Shown one piece after another: positions 2,229 to 11,758 of a stretch of DNA of 32,000 bases. The stretch lies in the NCBI GenBank assembly GCA_030606485.1, contig JAUWGH010000001.1, positions 300,001 to 332,000 of the forward strand, given 5' to 3'. Position 1 is the stretch's first letter, and each line of letters opens with the position of its first letter. Source of the stretch: Promethearchaeota archaeon (GTDB lineage Archaea; Asgardarchaeota; Lokiarchaeia; Sigyniarchaeales; SOKP01). The notes below the pieces were generated by a model, which saw only the letters and a list, made by a program, of their open reading frames with translations, did not search any database and was not told the DNA's origin. The position numbers and the translations under genes were made by a program.

Positions 2229-3512
2229 ATGCCAATGTATCAAGACCAAGCAATAAATGATGAAATAATAGAAAAAATGAGCCTAAAAAATCGGTACACC
2301 TTTTTTAACAATAATTTAATGGCAATCTTAAGCCCCGAACAATTTAATTTCTTAAGAAAAGTACAAAGATTCTGTATGAGATACGAGAAAAAAAATAACA
2401 TCCAACACAGTATGGATGAGGATATTTACCAATGGATTCCCGATTTTGGTGCAGAAGGATATGTAACACGTTCATATAAAATGGATGAACTTGATATTAA
2501 TTATGAAGAACATGGTGCTGCTGCTGAAACGATGAGAATTCTTGCAGTTGATCAGTTTGATACCCAGTTTTGTATGGCTATGGGCGCCACAATATTAGCA
2601 ATAAATGCAATCAAAGCTCATCATGAAGGTATCCAAGAACGTTTAGATGCCCTAAGAGATCTAATGACCGGTAAAGAATGCGGAGCAATTTTAATAACAG
2701 AACCCGAAAGAGGTTCGGATGCTGTACATCAATTGACAGTCACCGAACCCCAAGAAGATGGCAGCTTAATTATTAATGGTGAGAAAATTTATAACACCAA
2801 CTCCCCCAAAGCTAAATGGGTTGTTGGATATGGTACTGCAGTAGCAAATGAAGGCAATCAAATGACCCAATACTTAATTAATACAAGTTGGGACGGATGG
2901 AGGAGCGAAAGAGTATTCATTCCGTGGACTCCAAAAATTTGGATTGGCCATAATCACCTAACTAATATAAGAGTCCCCCCAGAATATGTTTTAGGGGGCG
3001 TTGGAAAAGGGAGGGATCACCTATTTGAAGGATTAATACTAGAAAGAATTGGGATCGCAGTAGGAAATGTTGCTCAAGCATGGACCGCCCTTTCACACGC
3101 ATTTATTTATATCAACATGAGAAAGCAATTTGGCCAAGAAGTCTTAAAATTCCAAGGAGTTGGTTTCACCTTTGCCGATTATTGGGCAAGAACAACAAAT
3201 TTAACTATAGGATTATTAAAATTCTGCGAAGAATATGATAAAAAAATGGAAAAATTTGGGGGTGAGATTCCAAGAAATATCTCCCAAGCAATGGTTGCTT
3301 CCTCTAGCCATTTTAAATTGGAAGCATCTCGATTATCCGAACGTTGTTGTTATGAAATGGCGAATCTTATGGGAGGTGCTGGTGTCTGTGATAATACATT
3401 AATGTGGGATCTCGTAGGAATCTCAAGAATACAGGAGATAGTTGGCGGGACAAGACAGATACAACAATACATCATTTCTATGGCGAATCGTCAATTATGG
3501 AAAATGTTATAG
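2229..3512 (+). CDS. Acyl-CoA dehydrogenase (ACAD), paralog 2
   Basis: Same ACAD motifs (ILITEPERGSD, RKQFGQEVLKFQGV, RIQEIVGGT); 61/81 identical to paralog 1 over the first 81 residues (hand count). Confidence 0.93.
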   Translation: MPMYQDQAINDEIIEKMSLKNRYTFFNNNLMAILSPEQFNFLRKVQRFCMRYEKKNNIQHSMDEDIYQWIPDFGAEGYVTRSYKMDELDINYEEHGAAAETMRILAVDQFDTQFCMAMGATILAINAIKAHHEGIQERLDALRDLMTGKECGAILITEPERGSDAVHQLTVTEPQEDGSLIINGEKIYNTNSPKAKWVVGYGTAVANEGNQMTQYLINTSWDGWRSERVFIPWTPKIWIGHNHLTNIRVPPEYVLGGVGKGRDHLFEGLILERIGIAVGNVAQAWTALSHAFIYINMRKQFGQEVLKFQGVGFTFADYWARTTNLTIGLLKFCEEYDKKMEKFGGEIPRNISQAMVASSSHFKLEASRLSERCCYEMANLMGGAGVCDNTLMWDLVGISRIQEIVGGTRQIQQYIISMANRQLWKML

Positions 3513-3572
3513 ATAATAAAATTATATCCTTATTATAAAATTATTTTCATTTTCTTTTTTTTCCTTATTCTT

Positions 3573-4361
3573 TTAATTCAGTGAATTAAAAATTAAAATT
3601 ATCGCCAATACTATACAAATTAATATGATAATTAGCCCTAAAAAGTTGTATTTACGTTTAAATCCCCGGTTTTGAGATAATTCACTTGGGTTATTGGTAT
3701 TATCATATTGAGTCATTACTGTTTCTGTTTGTGTGGTCTCTATCATTTGAGTGGTTGCCTGTTTTTTAATTATCTTATCTAATGAATTCCATGCTTTATC
3801 AATTGATTCTTTTACTTCTTGAGAAATTTCCTCATCAGGTATTTCAAATATTTGGGTTGTAGTATCTAATCCTACAGTCAGTTTGTATTGTTCGGTAAAT
3901 TCTTTATCAACTAATGCACTTAGAATGGTAGTTTTGCCAACGGCTGCTGGTCCTGCAAGAACGACTTTAAAATTATAATTTTCTTTATCAATAATTTGCC
4001 CCAATTTAGGGGGAGAGCGTATATCCATTAAGGCTAATAAAGCCATCTTGTCAAATAACTTTTTAATATTTAAACCTGATAACGCTGAAGTTTCTATATA
4101 TTCCAGTAAGCTATACCTATGAACAACATCAAGGATTTTTTTTTTCCCCATTAAGATGCCAAGATCTTTCTCGAGATCCTTTTTATTTCCCACGAGAATA
4201 ATTGGGATATTTCCAGCTTTTACTCGTATCTCATTATAATATTTTTCAAGTCTATCGAAAGTATCCGGGCGGGCTAAATCAAATATTAGAGCGATTATCG
4301 AAGCGCCTTTAAAGAAATCACTCTTAAAAAATTCGAATCTTTCCTGTCCACCGATCTCCAA
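3573..4361 (-). CDS. Rab/Ras-like small GTPase, circularly permuted (G3-G4-G5-G1-G2), with C-terminal transmembrane anchor
   Basis: EIGGQERF (G3-like, aa 2-9), LVGNKKD (G4, 59-62), ETSAL (G5, 90-94), KVVLAGPAAVGKT (G1, 137-144), TVGLD (G2, T162), then a T/Q-rich linker and hydrophobic FLGLIIILICIVLAIILIF (240-258). Start uncertain: the frame is open up to 4391. Confidence 0.85.
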   Translation of the reverse strand: MEIGGQERFEFFKSDFFKGASIIALIFDLARPDTFDRLEKYYNEIRVKAGNIPIILVGNKKDLEKDLGILMGKKKILDVVHRYSLLEYIETSALSGLNIKKLFDKMALLALMDIRSPPKLGQIIDKENYNFKVVLAGPAAVGKTTILSALVDKEFTEQYKLTVGLDTTTQIFEIPDEEISQEVKESIDKAWNSLDKIIKKQATTQMIETTQTETVMTQYDNTNNPSELSQNRGFKRKYNFLGLIIILICIVLAIILIFNSLN

Positions 4362-4544
4362 AACGGAAAGAGTTATTCTTACGATAATCCCTCACTTATT
4401 ATTAATGATTGAAGTGTTCAATATATTAATAAGTTGGAGAAAAATAATTAATTTATCTTATTTACCAGAAAATAATTTCAATTTCCCCAATAAACTACTT
4501 GTTCTGTATAAGTTAATCGTAAAATGAAAATAAAAAAAGTAGGT

Positions 4545-7301
4545 TTAAATTTTTAAGACTTTCTTTTCCAAGGTTAATTCTAATGCTTCTTGCATAGCTT
4601 TTTCGTATATATCAATCTTAAATTTATTATGAAACGGGGATATTTTTGTCCCAAGTTTTGCCATTTTGTATAAAGCTTTTGGAAAGACTCCGATAGCTCC
4701 TTCCACAAGATTTGCTGCTCTCTCCAATTCATTAATTGTATTATCATCATAACCTCCGAAAAGTCCATCAAGGAAAGCATAGAAAAATATAAATCCAAAA
4801 ATTCCGATTATGAACAAGATAGCTGTGTTTATTATCAAATCACCTAGAGGAATCATCCAGATTAAATCTCCGACGATTGATAATACCAAAAAGTTTACAA
4901 TAGCTGCAAGGGCAGGAACTAAGAATGTTTTAAATGGATATACTTTATATGTTGTTATCTTGTAGCGAACAATAATCCACAGTAGGATCCCCTTCAAAAT
5001 TACTGCCGGTATATAAGCGAATAATACTGCCTCCATATTTTTCAGCCAAATGACTAAAATTATTATTAGTATAGCCCTCGACGTTTGTTCCATTATCCAA
5101 ACAAAAGCAGCTAAGCCTGTTTTTCCGGTTCCTTCAAGGATTGCATCACCTAGCCAACAAAATACTCCAAATGTATGAAAAATCAGTAAAGGATACAGAA
5201 ATTTTACTGCTGGCCCCCCATATTCAATTCCTGCTGCACCCACAATAAATTTTGCACCAATTGCAAAAAGAACCGAGACTATAAAAAACGCGAAATAATT
5301 GGCCCACCTAAAGCCCTGATAGATATATAGTCTTGTTAAGGTTGGCTTTCCATGTTCATATGATTCACTATATGCTCCTAATAATGATTGGGCATATAAT
5401 GCAACAATTTGTACAATCATGCCAATCCCCCAACATAAATTAAAATATCCTAGCTCGTTTGAATAATTCGCAATAAACATACTCGTGACTATTATCTGTA
5501 TAAACCAGCCAATTTGTACAAAAGATTCTCCAAATGCTAATTTTGATCCATATTTTATAGATTCGTTAAATTCATCTTTTGTAAAATCAATTCGAAAAAC
5601 AGTTTTAACAGAAAATCCCTGTTTTTTGAATAATATCATGGAGAATAAAAATGTAACCCAATAATCGAAATATCTTGCAATAGCATATCCAATTCCTGCT
5701 CCCAATGCTTCTCCAATAATCGGATTTGCAGCGCCCCACATTCGACCCAAATAACAAAAGATCATTTGTCCTACCAAAAGCCAAATCACTTCCCATGCAA
5801 CATAGGTTATAAGATGTAAGTCTGCTTTTTGCATTCCTTGGAAGGTGTACATAAATACTAAGAAGAAACCGGGATATTGAACCAAAGAAAAAGTTACAAA
5901 AATCCAACTCATGTGTGCTATATTTGTCATTGGAAATATTATTGACCCAATAAACGCGAATATACATACCTGAATTAAACCAGTTAGTAGTTGCCACCAA
6001 ACAAAGATTTGTATGTAATGTACTGCCTTCTCAGGATTTTTTACTCTATATTGAGCAAAGTATTTGGCTAATGCGAATGACGTACCAAGGTCAAACACCA
6101 GCCAAGCAATTTGGAATATATTATAAGCGTAATAATACCAACCAGCAGCTTGAGGATAAGGTTGGATAATTTGGGGCATTACAAAACTGGAAATTAATAA
6201 TTGAGGGATAACCAAGATTAAGCTGATAAAAAGAGTAAAAAGAAAGCCACCCAATTGCCTATGAATTCCAATTACTTCCCAATCATCTTTTAAGTCAATT
6301 TTTGCCTCGATTTTCCCTTTAAGTTCTTCTTCTTCTTCTCTCCTTTTTCTCTCCTCTTCTTCTGCTTGTAATCTCAATGTTTCAATAGTTGCTTGATCCA
6401 TTTTGGATTCGGATTTTTTCCTCATCATTACGAATAATGAAACTGCCAAGATTGCCAAGCATATAACAACTATCAGTATAATTATCTGATCTCTGAGATG
6501 TGGAACTGGGGAAAATGCCCATTGACTGTATTTTTGATATTGTTCACCTATACTTTCAAACGCCATTGTGTATAGTAAATAATTAAAATAGGGCCATAGA
6601 ACAAAATGAATATTAGCACCTTCTTCCACCCATCCTGTAAATAAAAGTATATTTCCGTTTCCTTTTGCCATTTCTACTAATATAGGCTGGCGATACAGAT
6701 CAATTTCTAAATTTTTTGAAGCCGGATAAACATCAATCACTCTATCAATGGAATTGTTAAAATCTTGAGTTGGAATAACTGTCATATTCCCTATAATCAT
6801 ATCAGGAGCAGAATTCCAATCAATATTTTGGCTGATTGGATGTGAAATATCTCCTACGACGAATAAATTTGATTCACTATTTTTTTGAAAATTTGCATCG
6901 GTAATTATTATTTGAAAATCTTCTAAGAGTGTAGCATCATTATGTAAATTTTGCCCCATAAAGATTATACACGAACCGCCACTATCCACGAAATTTCCTA
7001 TAAGGGATATCTCTGAGGTGTCCAAAGAAGCATCAAATAGAACGATGATATCAACCGAAGGATCGATCGAGGTAATTGGAGTTAAATCTGAAACGATTGT
7101 AATATCAAAATTATCCTGGTCGACTTGTATGCTCTGTCGAAAATGAGAATCGGTTCCTTTACTAATTACCAAGAGATTTTTTTTATCTGCTCCTTGACCG
7201 CCTGAAGGAATAATTAAAAGAATAAAACTCATACCACTTATAAACAGCGCAATTAGGCCTATTACTAATAACTTTGATATTTTTTGATTAGATTTTACCA
7301 T
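4545..7301 (-). CDS. MOP-superfamily (polysaccharide/oligosaccharide flippase, MATE-like) transporter fused to an N-terminal extracytoplasmic domain
   Basis: N-terminal TM/signal, ~230-aa soluble alpha/beta domain (LLVIS..., DIIVLFD..., GGSCIIFMG), a TM helix, charged coil (EEEERKRREEEEE), then ~12-14 TM segments with MOP-like features (FDLGTSFALAKYFAQYR, ILEGTGK). Confidence 0.7.
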   Translation of the reverse strand: MVKSNQKISKLLVIGLIALFISGMSFILLIIPSGGQGADKKNLLVISKGTDSHFRQSIQVDQDNFDITIVSDLTPITSIDPSVDIIVLFDASLDTSEISLIGNFVDSGGSCIIFMGQNLHNDATLLEDFQIIITDANFQKNSESNLFVVGDISHPISQNIDWNSAPDMIIGNMTVIPTQDFNNSIDRVIDVYPASKNLEIDLYRQPILVEMAKGNGNILLFTGWVEEGANIHFVLWPYFNYLLYTMAFESIGEQYQKYSQWAFSPVPHLRDQIIILIVVICLAILAVSLFVMMRKKSESKMDQATIETLRLQAEEEERKRREEEEELKGKIEAKIDLKDDWEVIGIHRQLGGFLFTLFISLILVIPQLLISSFVMPQIIQPYPQAAGWYYYAYNIFQIAWLVFDLGTSFALAKYFAQYRVKNPEKAVHYIQIFVWWQLLTGLIQVCIFAFIGSIIFPMTNIAHMSWIFVTFSLVQYPGFFLVFMYTFQGMQKADLHLITYVAWEVIWLLVGQMIFCYLGRMWGAANPIIGEALGAGIGYAIARYFDYWVTFLFSMILFKKQGFSVKTVFRIDFTKDEFNESIKYGSKLAFGESFVQIGWFIQIIVTSMFIANYSNELGYFNLCWGIGMIVQIVALYAQSLLGAYSESYEHGKPTLTRLYIYQGFRWANYFAFFIVSVLFAIGAKFIVGAAGIEYGGPAVKFLYPLLIFHTFGVFCWLGDAILEGTGKTGLAAFVWIMEQTSRAILIIILVIWLKNMEAVLFAYIPAVILKGILLWIIVRYKITTYKVYPFKTFLVPALAAIVNFLVLSIVGDLIWMIPLGDLIINTAILFIIGIFGFIFFYAFLDGLFGGYDDNTINELERAANLVEGAIGVFPKALYKMAKLGTKISPFHNKFKIDIYEKAMQEALELTLEKKVLKI

Positions 7302-7431
7302 ATGAAATCAATTTAATAAAATTTTTATTGCTTTTAGATAGAATTAGGAAATATATAAATAGTATCTTTTTTAACAATTTATTAATTGTCCATAGTTCTC
7401 GTTTAAAGGTCTTAAATCCAAATTCGACCAT

Positions 7432-8298
7432 TTAGAATTTCAATTTAATCCAGAGCTCTTCTCCTGGTTGTTTAAAGAAGGGATAATAAGGTTTAAGACC
7501 TGTTATTAAACCCCAGATTATTGAACAAGTAATGAAAATAAGTGCTTCAATTAGTACCACCCAAACAAATGGATGATCGCGAATACAATTTTTTTTTTTT
7601 AATTTTGTAGCAACAATAAATAAGACTAGACCAATATTAATTAACAATAGGACAAAAGTTGCTTGACCTTCAGTGAATCCATAAAACCATACGATCCCAT
7701 ATCCAATTCCCACAAGTGTGATAAATAACCATTCAAACCATTTCAAATCTCTCGAAGGTGGACTGAATAATAATCCCCCCATAAACATACTCATTAATAT
7801 CATTAGTGGGACGGCTAAAGCCATATGCCCAAAAATTTCATCCCAAAAATAAATTGCATAATAGAGATCTGCGTAAAAAGGGTCTGAAAGAATTTTTGTA
7901 ATATCAAAGGCTCGTCTATTTAAATCATTGACGACTTTATGAATAGCATTTCCTAAGCACATCGTGCAAACTGTAACAAAAAATATAACTTCTAAGGCAG
8001 CTATCCATTTCGTGGACAATTTTTCTTTTAATAAGATTTGTTCATCAAGGAAAATGCTCTTAAAAACTTTCCATGTGATAACAGAAAAAACAGGCCCCAT
8101 CAAGAATATTTCTATTAAATCTTGCGCTGGAATGACAAATGATACTTCCTGATCAAGTTCTGAAATCCAATAACTAATTGTAATTGAAAAATAATCTCCG
8201 AGTAATGTAATCAAATAACACATTGCATATCCTATGAAAAACCATAAAAAAAGCTGAAACTCTTTTTTAGAATTTGCATTAATGTGATTAATTGACAT
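7432..8298 (-). CDS. Polytopic membrane protein of unknown function (~7-8 TM)
   Basis: 288-aa ORF with repeated hydrophobic segments and intramembrane polar motifs GNAIHKVVND and WDEIFGH. Confidence 0.75.
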   Translation of the reverse strand: MSINHINANSKKEFQLFLWFFIGYAMCYLITLLGDYFSITISYWISELDQEVSFVIPAQDLIEIFLMGPVFSVITWKVFKSIFLDEQILLKEKLSTKWIAALEVIFFVTVCTMCLGNAIHKVVNDLNRRAFDITKILSDPFYADLYYAIYFWDEIFGHMALAVPLMILMSMFMGGLLFSPPSRDLKWFEWLFITLVGIGYGIVWFYGFTEGQATFVLLLINIGLVLFIVATKLKKKNCIRDHPFVWVVLIEALIFITCSIIWGLITGLKPYYPFFKQPGEELWIKLKF

Positions 8299-8455
8299 TA
8301 TTTATTTCTCTTATTAATCTATTTTGAAATTATGTTCATTACAAATAGTTTTGAAATTTTGTTATTAGATTTTGATATATGAATCGATTTATTTTAATTA
8401 CATATCAACTGCTAAAATATAAAATTTAGATCATTTTTTTTAAATAATCGTTGAT

Positions 8456-9307
8456 TTAGATGTGGATTAATTTTTCACTAATCTCCCATACTTTTTTTTG
8501 AATAGTTTCATCGTATGTCATCTTATGCGATTTTACAGGTATACATTTTTTAAAGTATTTTCCCGAAATCTTTTCAACTTCAGGCGACGACGCGAGATAT
8601 ACAGATGTTTCGGCTGCTTCTTCCGGACTTTTAGAAAACAAATTCATAATTTTTTTAATAATCCAAGAGACATTTGTCTGTGTCATTTTCGTTCTGGCAT
8701 GACCAGGGTGGAGGGCATTAACAGTTACTCCTGTTCCATCTAACCTGCGTGCTAGTTCGTATGTAAATAGAATAATTGCGAATTTTGCTGAACCATAAGC
8801 TTTTTGGGAAGAATATTTTTTTTCAAACATTAAATCATCCAAATTTATTTTAAAATAACGGTGGATATCCGATGATACATTGATTATTCGTGATGGGGCA
8901 CTTTTTTTTATAATATCAAGTAAGAGTTTTGTTAATAGAAAGTGAGAAAGATAATCAGCCGCAAATGTGCTCTCATATCCATCTTCGGTTAATACTTTTT
9001 TACTATTAAATACACCGGCGTTGTTTATCAAAATATGCAACTTGTCATATTTTTTCTTAAATTCATCAGCTAAATTTTTAACTGATTCTAAAGATGCGAG
9101 GTCTGCAATTATGAGGTCAACATTACTATTTCCAGATTCTTCTTTTATTTGTTTTTGTGCATTTTCCCCTCGTTCTTTATTTCGACAGACCATGACAATA
9201 TGGATTCCCATTTTTGCTAATTGAATAGCAGTTGCTTTACCGATCCCAGAATTAGCACCCGTAATCATGCAAGTTTTTCCTTTCAATTGATAATTATTCT
9301 CGCTCAT
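8456..9307 (-). CDS. Short-chain dehydrogenase/reductase, retinol dehydrogenase/WWOX-like
   Basis: TGANSGIG Rossmann motif, LINNAG, catalytic YGSAK (YxxxK), VNALHPG. Confidence 0.93.
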   Translation of the reverse strand: MSENNYQLKGKTCMITGANSGIGKATAIQLAKMGIHIVMVCRNKERGENAQKQIKEESGNSNVDLIIADLASLESVKNLADEFKKKYDKLHILINNAGVFNSKKVLTEDGYESTFAADYLSHFLLTKLLLDIIKKSAPSRIINVSSDIHRYFKINLDDLMFEKKYSSQKAYGSAKFAIILFTYELARRLDGTGVTVNALHPGHARTKMTQTNVSWIIKKIMNLFSKSPEEAAETSVYLASSPEVEKISGKYFKKCIPVKSHKMTYDETIQKKVWEISEKLIHI

Positions 9308-9377
9308 CCTTTTCAGCTTAGAATTTTAACTAAATCTTTCAATAACTAAATGAGATTCAAATAGCATATTTTAGTGA

Positions 9378-9433
9378 AGGTATACTCCTTATTAAAAATC
9401 TTCATCTAAAAGTAATATTTAATCATGAGATTT
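9378..9433 (+). repeat. 56-bp direct repeat, left copy; decayed copy of the helicase 3' end
   Basis: aggtatactccttattaaaaatcttcatctaaaagtaatatttaatcatgagattt matches 11741-11796 at 53/56. On the minus strand it reads KSHD*ILLLDEDF* versus helicase KSHDKILLFDEDF*. Confidence 0.95.
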
Positions 9434-9613
9434 ACATATATTTTAGACTATCTTTTTTTGAATATTCTGTTGTAAATATTATAAAAATTCTGCGCCCCTC
9501 TCTTACTTAAATACCCAAATTCGTTAGATTTTTTAATAAAAATAGAATTATCAATAAATTTCTCATGAAATCCTAATTAAATCTTATCTTAAAATAAAAA
9601 TAATGATTAAAAA

Positions 9614-11758
9614 GTGACTAAAAATTTTTCTCAAGTAGAATTAAACTTCTTAAAAAGTAAAGGGATTAATATAAAAAATCTTAAGACAAGATGGGCATGG
9701 GTTAATGAAAATCTTGCTGTTGAATTTTACCGCGATTTCTTAATACCTTATTTTAAAAAAGTACCAACCAATAACGAGTTGGACGCTCATGGATTTAGAG
9801 GATTTAGATATGCAGTTGGTCGTATTAGGAAAAAAATGACCGAAATCACAAAAGCGGCGGGATATAAACCACATTTCGAAGTAAAATATAGGGATTTGTC
9901 ATTTGAAGATTTGGTTGAGCTCTATATATATAAAATTTACCCGGAATTAAAGGAGAAACTCAAACTTTCCAAAGAACAACCTCCAACTCAATTGCAAATG
10001 GAAACAAATGGATATCGCGGATTCATAGATGCAATTTATAAGAGAGGTAGAAATATTCCAGATTTACAAAAAGCTGCGGGTTTTAAACCACTTAAAGAAT
10101 TTAATTATGCAGGCAAATCGTTCGTAGAACTAGTGGAGATGTTTTTAAATGAAATTTACCCAGATTTAAGGAAGAAGTTAAAACTACCAGAGGGGGAACA
10201 CCCCAAAAAGGAAGATATTGATAAATACTATAATGGTTTACTTAAAGCACTTGGACGAATAGGTAAAACTTATAATAACCTTGCGAAAGCAGCTGGCTTC
10301 ATGCCGAGGATGGAGCATAAATATATTGAAAAATCTTTTGAAGAACTCGTTGAAATGTTTAAAAATGAAATATATCCAGCTCTCGTGAAAAAATTATCAT
10401 TACAGAAGAGTGTGGCTCCAACTAGAGACCAAGTAGAAAAAAATTTTCGTGGTTTTACAAATGCTTTAACCAATATGAAAAAATATTATCCTGAATTATT
10501 AAGAATAGCAGGATTTGAACCGAAATATGAGCAAAAATATAGAGATATGAATTTAAAAGATTTAGTGGAATTTTTTTTAGAAGAAATATATCCATTTGTA
10601 AAAACAAAACTCACAGAAAAGGGATTGAATCTTGGAGATAAAGAAGCTCCCACCGTAAAGCAAATTCGAAAATATGGATATGGCGGTTTTATTCAGAAAT
10701 TATATAAAATTACATCATATAATGATTTAATAGAAGCTGTTGGGTTAGAACCTAATGTTGAATATCGATATGTAGATATGGATTTTAAAGATTTAGTCGA
10801 TTTTTTCAAAACACAAATTTATCCTGATGTGAAATCCCAAATAATAATTGGAGAAAATGAAGCTCCTAGCAAATTAGAATTATGCGATTTGGGCTATACT
10901 GGATTTTTTGATGCAATTTATCGAACTGGAAAAACTTATTTTCAATTAGTGAAAGAAATGGGTTTTATACCAAGACAATCAATTGGATCTGAATTAGGAA
11001 CATTAAATCATAAGGCTATTAATTTTTTAATCTCAGATTGGGTTAACCAAGATAAATCTCCTAATATAATATATTATATCGAGGTAAAATTATTCGATCC
11101 AGTGAATGAATTTAGAATTGATGGATTTTTAATTAACAACAAGATAATCCAAAACCATATAACTTACAATTTTAAAAATTGGATATATAAACAAATTGAT
11201 AATCTCTCTCAGAAAAAGCTTTTGGTTGGATTAATTGATAAAATAATCGATAAAAAATTCTATTTATTTGATTATTCCAATGCATACTTTAACCGTTTTA
11301 ATAAAGTAAATTTAAAAATGGTGGCATCAAAAATTATTAAGTATCGGAAAAATAATTTAGCGAATTTATTTCTTGTGGGGACAAAATGGCCATATCATGG
11401 ACTGTATATTATTAAACTTCCAGAATACATAAATTATGGTATTAAAAAAGTACATACCGCAAATACAATTCTTATCAGTCATGTTCTTTTTGCCAAATTG
11501 ATAGGATTGGATGGTTCATTTCTCCAAAAATTTAAAGAAATTATTTCTTGTAATCAGAAAGATGATTTAAATAATTTATTTAAAATCATTGAAGCTTATG
11601 AAAAGAAAGAAATAAGAACACATCAAACTAAGGATTTAACGAAATTCCTTAAGAAATCATCTAATGTTCAAATAAAAATAAATAGCTATTTGTCTGAATT
11701 ATTTAATTTCTATATTGATTTTACAACTTTAGATAAATGGAGGTATAGTCCTTATTAA
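9614..11758 (+). CDS. Tandem-repeat protein (six ~72-77 aa repeats resembling homing-endonuclease-associated repeats) with a putative C-terminal PD-(D/E)XK-like nuclease
   Basis: Repeat consensus IYPxL..KL.L....P(T/S)..ql...gyrGF..Al.r.gk.y..L.kaAGF.P..e.kY.d.sf.eLVe.F. C-terminus has GTLNH, YYIEVKL, RIDGFLI, YLFDYS, KIIKY. Nuclease assignment is by motif resemblance only. Confidence 0.65.
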   Translation: MTKNFSQVELNFLKSKGINIKNLKTRWAWVNENLAVEFYRDFLIPYFKKVPTNNELDAHGFRGFRYAVGRIRKKMTEITKAAGYKPHFEVKYRDLSFEDLVELYIYKIYPELKEKLKLSKEQPPTQLQMETNGYRGFIDAIYKRGRNIPDLQKAAGFKPLKEFNYAGKSFVELVEMFLNEIYPDLRKKLKLPEGEHPKKEDIDKYYNGLLKALGRIGKTYNNLAKAAGFMPRMEHKYIEKSFEELVEMFKNEIYPALVKKLSLQKSVAPTRDQVEKNFRGFTNALTNMKKYYPELLRIAGFEPKYEQKYRDMNLKDLVEFFLEEIYPFVKTKLTEKGLNLGDKEAPTVKQIRKYGYGGFIQKLYKITSYNDLIEAVGLEPNVEYRYVDMDFKDLVDFFKTQIYPDVKSQIIIGENEAPSKLELCDLGYTGFFDAIYRTGKTYFQLVKEMGFIPRQSIGSELGTLNHKAINFLISDWVNQDKSPNIIYYIEVKLFDPVNEFRIDGFLINNKIIQNHITYNFKNWIYKQIDNLSQKKLLVGLIDKIIDKKFYLFDYSNAYFNRFNKVNLKMVASKIIKYRKNNLANLFLVGTKWPYHGLYIIKLPEYINYGIKKVHTANTILISHVLFAKLIGLDGSFLQKFKEIISCNQKDDLNNLFKIIEAYEKKEIRTHQTKDLTKFLKKSSNVQIKINSYLSELFNFYIDFTTLDKWRYSPY

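Follow-up and report, generated by a model that had tools for sequence, protein, structure and literature searches.

The closest described counterpart of the protein family reported here is cpRAS, a RAS-family domain with the motif order G3-G4-G5-G1-G2, in which the chain is cut in the β2-β3 turn and α5 is joined to β1 (Elias & Novotny 2008, Biol Direct 3:21, PMC2430557). This domain carries a 'TIE' G2 motif, was considered eukaryote-specific and is found in eukaryotic proteins of 840-3933 residues, together with a VWA/Sec23-24 trunk or COG2373/macroglobulin-like regions (PMC2430557). In the form in which their argument is cited in PMC2430557, Anand and colleagues held that a β2-β3 cut should prevent GTPase folding, a claim that Elias & Novotny explicitly corrected in 2008 (PMC2430557). 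Until now, cpRAS had been the only natural counter-example to that argument. The YRG/YlqF/RsgA proteins, too, are naturally occurring, circularly permuted P-loop GTPases, still able to fold and to hydrolyse GTP, but their cut lies between β3 and switch II, which gives the order G4-G5-G1-G2-G3, and they are TRAFAC ribosome-assembly GTPases, universal and not membrane-anchored (PMC2430557). The original prediction for the present locus took the latter order to be the only one among known circularly permuted GTPases; that picture is incomplete, as cpRAS has exactly the order G3-G4-G5-G1-G2 (PMC2430557).

The locus studied here lies in a 32,000-nt stretch of a Promethearchaeota archaeon contig (JAUWGH010000001.1, positions 300,001 to 332,000), called the window below, and belongs to an archaeal family that shares with cpRAS the motif order, the β2-β3 cut and the α5-β1 join. 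As in CPRas1-type proteins, the permuted domain is placed near the N-terminus and is followed by a poorly conserved linker. Differences concern both motifs and architecture. The G2 motif of the archaeal family is T[VI]G[LV]D[F] (YKLTVGLD in the window) and its G3 motif is WDxxGQERF, both Rab-like and without the 'TIE' signature, and the proteins are archaeal, predicted to be membrane-anchored and either stand-alone or fused to another C-terminal domain. No VWA/Sec23-24 or COG2373/macroglobulin domains are present in the 272-residue window protein, and in its long relatives another domain, without Pfam match, is found together with putative TM helices. The family is therefore like cpRAS in topology but not a member of it, being set apart by the published description, and represents a separate case of the 2008 topology, not a new topology. 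The YRG/YlqF order does not apply to it either: G3 precedes G4, and NCBIfam YqeH hits are sub-threshold only.

No description of a permuted archaeal small GTPase was found in the full-text literature, papers on Asgard small GTPases included, and only cpRAS surfaced; most subscription journals lay outside this scope, so that absence is no proof, and the archaeal family is apparently unpublished. A second lineage with the same cut, strongly conserved and kept in single copy over more than 60 species-level genomes, shows that the topology is evolutionarily accessible and stable. An 871-aa EukProt protein, apparently from Filamoeba (P0292), which a search with a long form of the family returned, was also considered as a cpRAS and rejected, its GTPase being in canonical order; it combines a Rab1-like domain, a four-Cys zinc finger and a VWA domain, which is the CPRas1 architecture with a GTPase that is not permuted.

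Motif order and predicted fold of the G domain

A stop-to-stop frame of 272 codons occupies positions 3573-4391 on the minus strand of the window. Its product does not follow the canonical order G1-G2-G3-G4-G5; each G motif occurs in one copy, in the order G3-G4-G5-G1-G2. The features of the frame are as follows:

3573..4391, minus strand: stop-to-stop frame of the permuted small GTPase, 272 codons, stop TAA at 3573-3575
4335..4385, minus strand: strand β3 and start of switch II (IVRITLSVLEIGGQERF), placed by the Rab7 alignment and the model
4344-4361, minus strand: G3 LEIGGQ, with Glu replacing the usual Asp
4176..4190, minus strand: G4 GNKKD, guanine specificity; N69, K70 and D72 invariant in 118 sequences
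4080..4094, minus strand: G5 ETSAL
3975..4028, minus strand: new α5-β1 connection (MDIRSPPKLGQIIDKENY), family consensus DLKPRLGEI with an invariant Gly
3930..3953, minus strand: G1 / P-loop GPAAVGKT
3864..3887, minus strand: G2 / switch I YKLTVGLD, with invariant Thr172
3840..3863, minus strand: strand β2, closing element of the G domain
3759..3839, minus strand: family-specific PxE cap (P190, invariant E192) and amphipathic helix after β2
3669..3758, minus strand: T/Q/N-rich linker, predicted to be partly disordered
3588..3668, minus strand: basic patch RGFKRKY followed by the C-terminal TM helix (tail anchor)

The circular permutation of a Rab-like G domain, which had been proposed from the motif order, is borne out by split matches to Rab7 and Pfam Ras. 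Pfam Ras (PF00071) is matched in two stretches (E 3.2e-30). In a phmmer search against PDB, residues 6-121 align with Rab7 57-174 (β3/G3, G4, G5 and α5) and residues 139-187 with Rab7 7-55 (β1/P-loop, α1, switch I and β2), with a whole-sequence E of 1.4e-20. Since the break points on Rab7 are complementary, the cut falls exactly in the β2-β3 hairpin, where the original prediction had placed it. Judged on sequence, this permuted match to Rab7/Ras is far beyond chance. Membership of the Ras superfamily is indicated by the presence of all five motifs with key residues invariant in 118 homologues, the G3 Asp being Glu here.

The designation Rab-like follows from best sequence hits only. With Asgard and eukaryotic Rabs the protein shares the G motifs and the β3-α5 fold, and the Thorarchaeota Rab PDB 7EZB was matched at E 5.5e-17 (phmmer against PDB). 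It differs from Rab7, Rab11 and canonical Asgard Rab-like proteins in its permuted chain, in the TM or polybasic helix after β2 and in RabF motifs that are only partly kept. Compared with the Rab family proper it lacks a Cys prenylation motif, and its switch II reads RFEFFK, not RFRSIT.

AlphaFold2, run with the 118-sequence alignment, modelled the whole protein with a mean pLDDT of 79 and a pTM of 0.69, and residues 1-200 with a pLDDT of 83 and a pTM of 0.83. The modelled order of elements is β3, switch II/α2, β4, α3, β5, α4, β6, α5, linker, β1, α1, switch I and β2; switch I is the only stretch with pLDDT below 50, and switch II is also of lower confidence. The predicted model has the Ras-like α/β fold and forms a single G domain, as the original prediction had anticipated, and its high pTM together with the conserved new linker predicts that the two halves close into one sheet. 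Foldseek and VIA matches reach residues 2-126 only (β3 to α5), and an ESM Atlas shape search gave TM values of 0.57-0.68 against ordinary small GTPases.

The archaeal family, its distribution and the integrity of the locus

A search of 5.8 billion proteins returned 376 homologues at E <= 0.001. Most of the best 120 of these 376 cover 65-98% of the query in a single collinear alignment, and identity among the matches listed is 88-92% within the genus and about 40-57% for most others. The motif order is the same in 18 out of 18 homologue sequences read. Their N-termini read M[V]K[IVL]TLSLWD[ITV][AG]GQERF and the chains continue through GNKxD, ETSA, the DLKPRLGEI linker, FRFK[IV]LLVGAAAVGKS and YKLT[VI]GLDF. 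Across 118 sequences, residues G15, Q16, N69, K70, D72, T101, S102, A103, G147, G152, K153, T172 and D176 are invariant, along with a Gly in the new α5-β1 linker and a Glu just past β2. The family G3 is WD[ITV][AG]GQ, with D12 retained in at least 90% of the 118 sequences; Trp-Asp is replaced by Leu-Glu (W11L, D12E) in four of the five species of the window's genus. The Glu in place of the DxxG Asp, to which the original prediction had drawn attention, is real but turns out to be a genus-level quirk and not a family feature, and would be a conservative change of the Mg-water ligand.

Searched with the full-length query, 67 of the 400 genomes of the phylum have the gene, in a single copy each and all within one order: 63 of the 134 genomes of the window's family, 3 of the 14 of a sister family in the same order, and the window's own genome. 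No copy was found with this query in the remaining families among the 400 genomes. A junction-only query (G5-α5-linker-β1-P-loop), applied to the window's family with as many as 41 candidates scored in each genome, gave full-length matches in 64 genomes, all of them also found by the full-length query; elsewhere it returned half-matches only. With the junction query, the gene is therefore truly absent from complete genomes of other genera. The carriers are labelled Promethearchaeota or Promethearchaeia MAGs, a few of them bearing other Asgard labels and none a cultured strain, which agrees with the Asgard archaeal host suspected from the outset. The suggested bearing on the origins of trafficking stands in an indirect form only, because the family is limited to part of one Lokiarchaeia-type order; its restriction to some genera likewise limits the message for eukaryogenesis, and interest in it is bounded by the narrow taxonomic range and the absence of any functional link.

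One copy (G256:C223:4381-4944) belongs to the sole carrier among 42 genomes of its genus. It is 77% identical to P0013 over the 79-residue junction query, P0013 in turn matches a largest-genus genome at 100%, and the copy could reflect bin contamination or a recent transfer. The window's own genome (G000, 3.75 Mb) yields about 56 six-frame small GTPase matches, only one of them permuted.

The gene occupies a conserved slot, flanked by acyl-CoA dehydrogenase genes at one end and an MrfA-type helicase block at the other. On the helicase side a methyltransferase, a 683-aa protein, a thioredoxin-like protein and a Ras-like GTPase occur in varying combinations ahead of the MrfA-type helicase, and the backbone neighbours also include a cupin, aIF-1A, an Spt5-NGN-like protein and an HD protein. 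Where the gene is missing, the slot contains nothing or unrelated ORFs, and no remnant was detected by tblastn. Naming a partner from gene context was considered and rejected, the conserved neighbours being chromosomal backbone and not a module; at the loci inspected no conserved neighbour points to a GEF, a GAP or an effector, and none is constant enough for a partner to be proposed.

In the window's genus the methyltransferase/683-aa/thioredoxin-like/Ras-like block is replaced (window 4545-11758) by genes for a 918-aa Polysacc_synt-family membrane protein, a 288-aa protein without Pfam match, an SDR and, on the opposite strand, a 714-aa repeat protein; the first three are the genes directly upstream in this genus. 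The 683-aa gene lies elsewhere (G147:C25). At two loci (L056 and L062, in G204 and G213) two canonical Ras-like genes stand in tandem a few genes from the permuted one, so local tandem duplication of GTPases does occur in this neighbourhood.

We consider a functional, single-domain permuted Rab-like GTPase, acting as a tail-anchored GTP switch, to be the best explanation of these observations and a likely one; GTP would be bound and hydrolysed by the permuted protein. That the frame is an assembly chimera or a truncated remnant of a tandem double GTPase is extremely improbable. Tandem canonical GTPase genes are indeed present in the same neighbourhood of some relatives, and in eukaryote-like tandem Rab proteins the domain junction is spanned by matches to the family profile, but such two-domain tandems have E of about 1e-47 or worse, against 1e-92 or better for full-length members. 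This stretch is present in sequencing runs of at least eight studies, which sampled cold-seep, marine and subsurface sediment; no RNA run is listed among them, and two tagged as possible RNA are probably DNA. Contigs from two other studies span 3454-4640, a segment that takes in the α5-β1 junction, the N-terminus and the upstream intergenic region, with no indel and no joint, and an independent contig covers the α5-β1 linker without differences, so that all joins are spanned by contigs from other studies and the frame is not chimeric. The same arrangement recurs in 67 genomes, with a start codon and an SD-like motif at each locus inspected, and the gene has a 153-nt intergenic region upstream and a helix and TM segment downstream of β2. 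With their own start and SD before β3 and a helix, with or without a TM segment, after β2, the homologues are not fragments of tandem GTPases but single permuted domains, and the chimera or remnant reading, which the original prediction had itself raised as a way to fail, is refuted as far as sequence data reach. Another alternative concerns how the domain works: a domain-swapped or partner-dependent dimer, in which β2 pairs with β3 of another chain, or a non-cycling nucleotide-binding scaffold (pseudo-switch). The cut hairpin leaves both strand ends free, and one long form (P0286) has a degenerate G3, WDPPGDQYF. We nevertheless regard this alternative as unlikely, since the chain is modelled as a compact monomer with high confidence (pTM 0.83) and neither the catalytic Gln16 nor Thr172 of switch I varies within the family.

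Translation start and selection

Relatives of the window gene have an ATG or TTG directly before β3, with GAGG or GGAGG 8-12 nt ahead, and read ATG GTA AAn ATy ACn (MVKITLS...). In place of this, all five species of the window's genus (including L017-L020) read ATC GTA/GTC AGA/AAA ATA/ATT ACT/ACG (window 4385-4371), and no ATG, GTG or TTG occurs ahead of β3 in frame 3573-4391. The elements around the presumed start are:

4383..4385, minus strand: ATC at the position of the family 'MVKITLS...' ATG, a candidate non-canonical start present in all five genus species
4389..4395, minus strand: Shine-Dalgarno-like GTGAGGG, containing the in-frame TGA (4392-4394) that closes the frame upstream
4420..4432, minus strand: A/T-rich TATA-like stretch (TTATTAATATATT) in the 153-nt intergenic region, conserved in the genus and suggestive of an own promoter

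A promoter and terminator scan, with bacterial consensus only, found nothing above shuffled background. Read-through of the TGA from a short upstream frame (TTG...TGA 4392-4394) was rejected, as that frame overlaps the TATA-like and SD-like elements and has no family counterpart.

The first canonical start is TTG 4361, inside the G3 motif, from which public calls P0003-P0007 of 262 aa begin. Initiation at this codon would remove β3 and leave a product with some other role, which is very unlikely: no SD-like motif stands before it, it is TTC in the orthologue of G148, the most distant congener, and the rest of the family begins before β3. Moreover, the 11 codons ahead of it are conserved at the protein level; they show 7 synonymous differences from the G148 copy against 5 non-synonymous ones, and from this pattern they are very probably translated. 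We infer a translation start at or next to ATC 4385, and conserved AUC initiation in the window's genus is possible. With ATC in place of the family ATG, public gene calls probably truncate β3, and those of 262 aa (from TTG) and of 224 aa (P0009, G148-type) are probably N-terminally truncated. An ATC at the start position offers a concrete test case for non-canonical initiation in Asgard archaea and flags truncated gene models.

The same changes would also be expected if the copy of this genus were decaying, having lost its ATG and its G3 Asp, with a GTPase that no longer works. ATG to ATC, W11 to L and D12 to E are found together in the window and three sister species, and the window orthologue has the longest branch of the short-form clade (0.47). 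Set against this, the frame is open over 268-272 codons in all five species despite saturated synonymous divergence to the G148 copy, pairwise dN/dS values among congeners range from 0.1 to 0.36 (0.06-0.31 when only the G domain is compared), all other G1-G5 residues are retained, Asp to Glu is conservative, and the codons upstream of the TTG change mainly synonymously. The substitution pattern indicates a gene under purifying selection and leaves decay only a slim chance. As a working permuted GTPase, the window orthologue is the most derived of its family, given its missing canonical start before β3, its G3 Glu and its non-basic helix after β2.

Predicted membrane tether and origin of the permuted form

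Past the G domain, model and hydropathy bear out the helix, T/Q-rich linker and C-terminal TM helix that had been read from the sequence: a helix at residues 191-231, a low-confidence T/Q/N-rich linker at 228-247 and a TM helix at 249-271 of 272, with a mean Kyte-Doolittle value of 3.6 over 19 residues and the basic RGFKRKY ahead. A single TM helix at the extreme C-terminus with basic residues before it, a preceding cytosolic domain and no N-terminal signal are the marks of tail-anchored proteins, to which the window protein is predicted to belong. The chain ends in ...LIFNSLN after the TM helix, without a Cys prenylation motif, in line with the suggestion that a TM anchor stands in for Rab prenylation. 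ArsA/Get3-family ATPases are encoded in the genome, as they are in 14 of 14 control genomes. A prokaryotic small GTPase with a built-in anchor would make a simple system for the contact of Asgard GTPases with membranes without prenylation.

Besides the window's genus, TM tails occur in the long forms, in three further genera and in part of the largest genus. Among the loci inspected, forms without a TM helix (207-230 aa among the protein hits) are confined to the largest genus; by parsimony the anchor is probably ancestral. The helix after β2 is strongly amphipathic in 16 of the 20 members sampled (μH 0.60-0.76) and basic, with a net charge of +2 to +12, in all except the window protein, whose amphipathic helix has a net charge of -1, which leaves the TM helix as the only obvious anchor there. 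Through such an amphipathic basic helix, TM-less forms could bind membranes peripherally.

In the mechanism that we propose, the chain would begin at β3/G3, pass through G4, G5 and α5 and cross the conserved linker into β1/P-loop, α1, switch I and β2; the amphipathic helix, flexible linker and TM helix that follow would make it a GTP switch anchored by its tail, the G domain facing the cytoplasm. Insertion into the membrane and the orientation on it are presumed accordingly from the predicted topology. The tether would leave the G domain at the interswitch end, in contrast to prenylated Rabs, whose tether follows α5. Arf-family proteins turn their interswitch face to the membrane. The likeness to Arf-type anchoring is that in most relatives the amphipathic polybasic helix adjoins the interswitch; the anchor here is C-terminal to β2, however, and that of Arf is an N-terminal myristoylated helix. 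This allows us to speculate that the nucleotide state is coupled to the tether. The uncoupling of the switches by the cut, which the original prediction had suggested, is equally speculative. A non-neutral permutation, selected for coupling of interswitch and tether, is a doubtful proposition, together with the non-exclusive one that the Asgard family was the source of eukaryotic cpRAS. If true, nucleotide-dependent shifts of the interswitch would be transmitted mechanically to the membrane tether, and a Rab-like scaffold would have arrived independently at an Arf-like solution; descent of cpRAS from this family would entail a later fusion to an Asgard-type Sec23/24-like ZnF-vWA protein.

For the phylogeny, sequences were un-permuted in silico, junction-specific columns were removed and 47 canonical archaeal and eukaryote-like GTPases were included. 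Short and long forms make up one clade (support 100/96), with the long forms as sister clade of the short ones, and the permutation thus arose once in this lineage. The join of the clade with P0167 has support of 44/16. The unusual GxAAVGK[ST] P-loop recurs, together with the WDIAGQERFxFF switch II, in the closest canonical archaeal proteins, and the family would be a vertically inherited, single-copy derivative of a canonical archaeal Rab-like GTPase. The syntenic canonical Ras-like GTPase, three or four genes away in most genomes, was considered as its sister and rejected, as it does not hold this position in the tree.

The long forms (P0128, P0132, P0135, P0139, P0142, P0271, P0286 and locus L060 in G132:C17) measure 410-755 aa. 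In them the permuted G domain is followed by a Pro-rich linker, then by a conserved domain of about 150 aa without Pfam match (signature KRKTTVFY..NPxT.NK...FPGC..VP...PLDA...TPTKVVKQT) and a hydrophobic C-terminal segment read as TM helices. Outside the Asgard clade, one further protein has the order G3-G4-G5-G1-G2, the Rab7-like P0187 (243 aa), which may be either an independent permutation or an artefact of gene calling at a eukaryotic locus with tandem Rabs.
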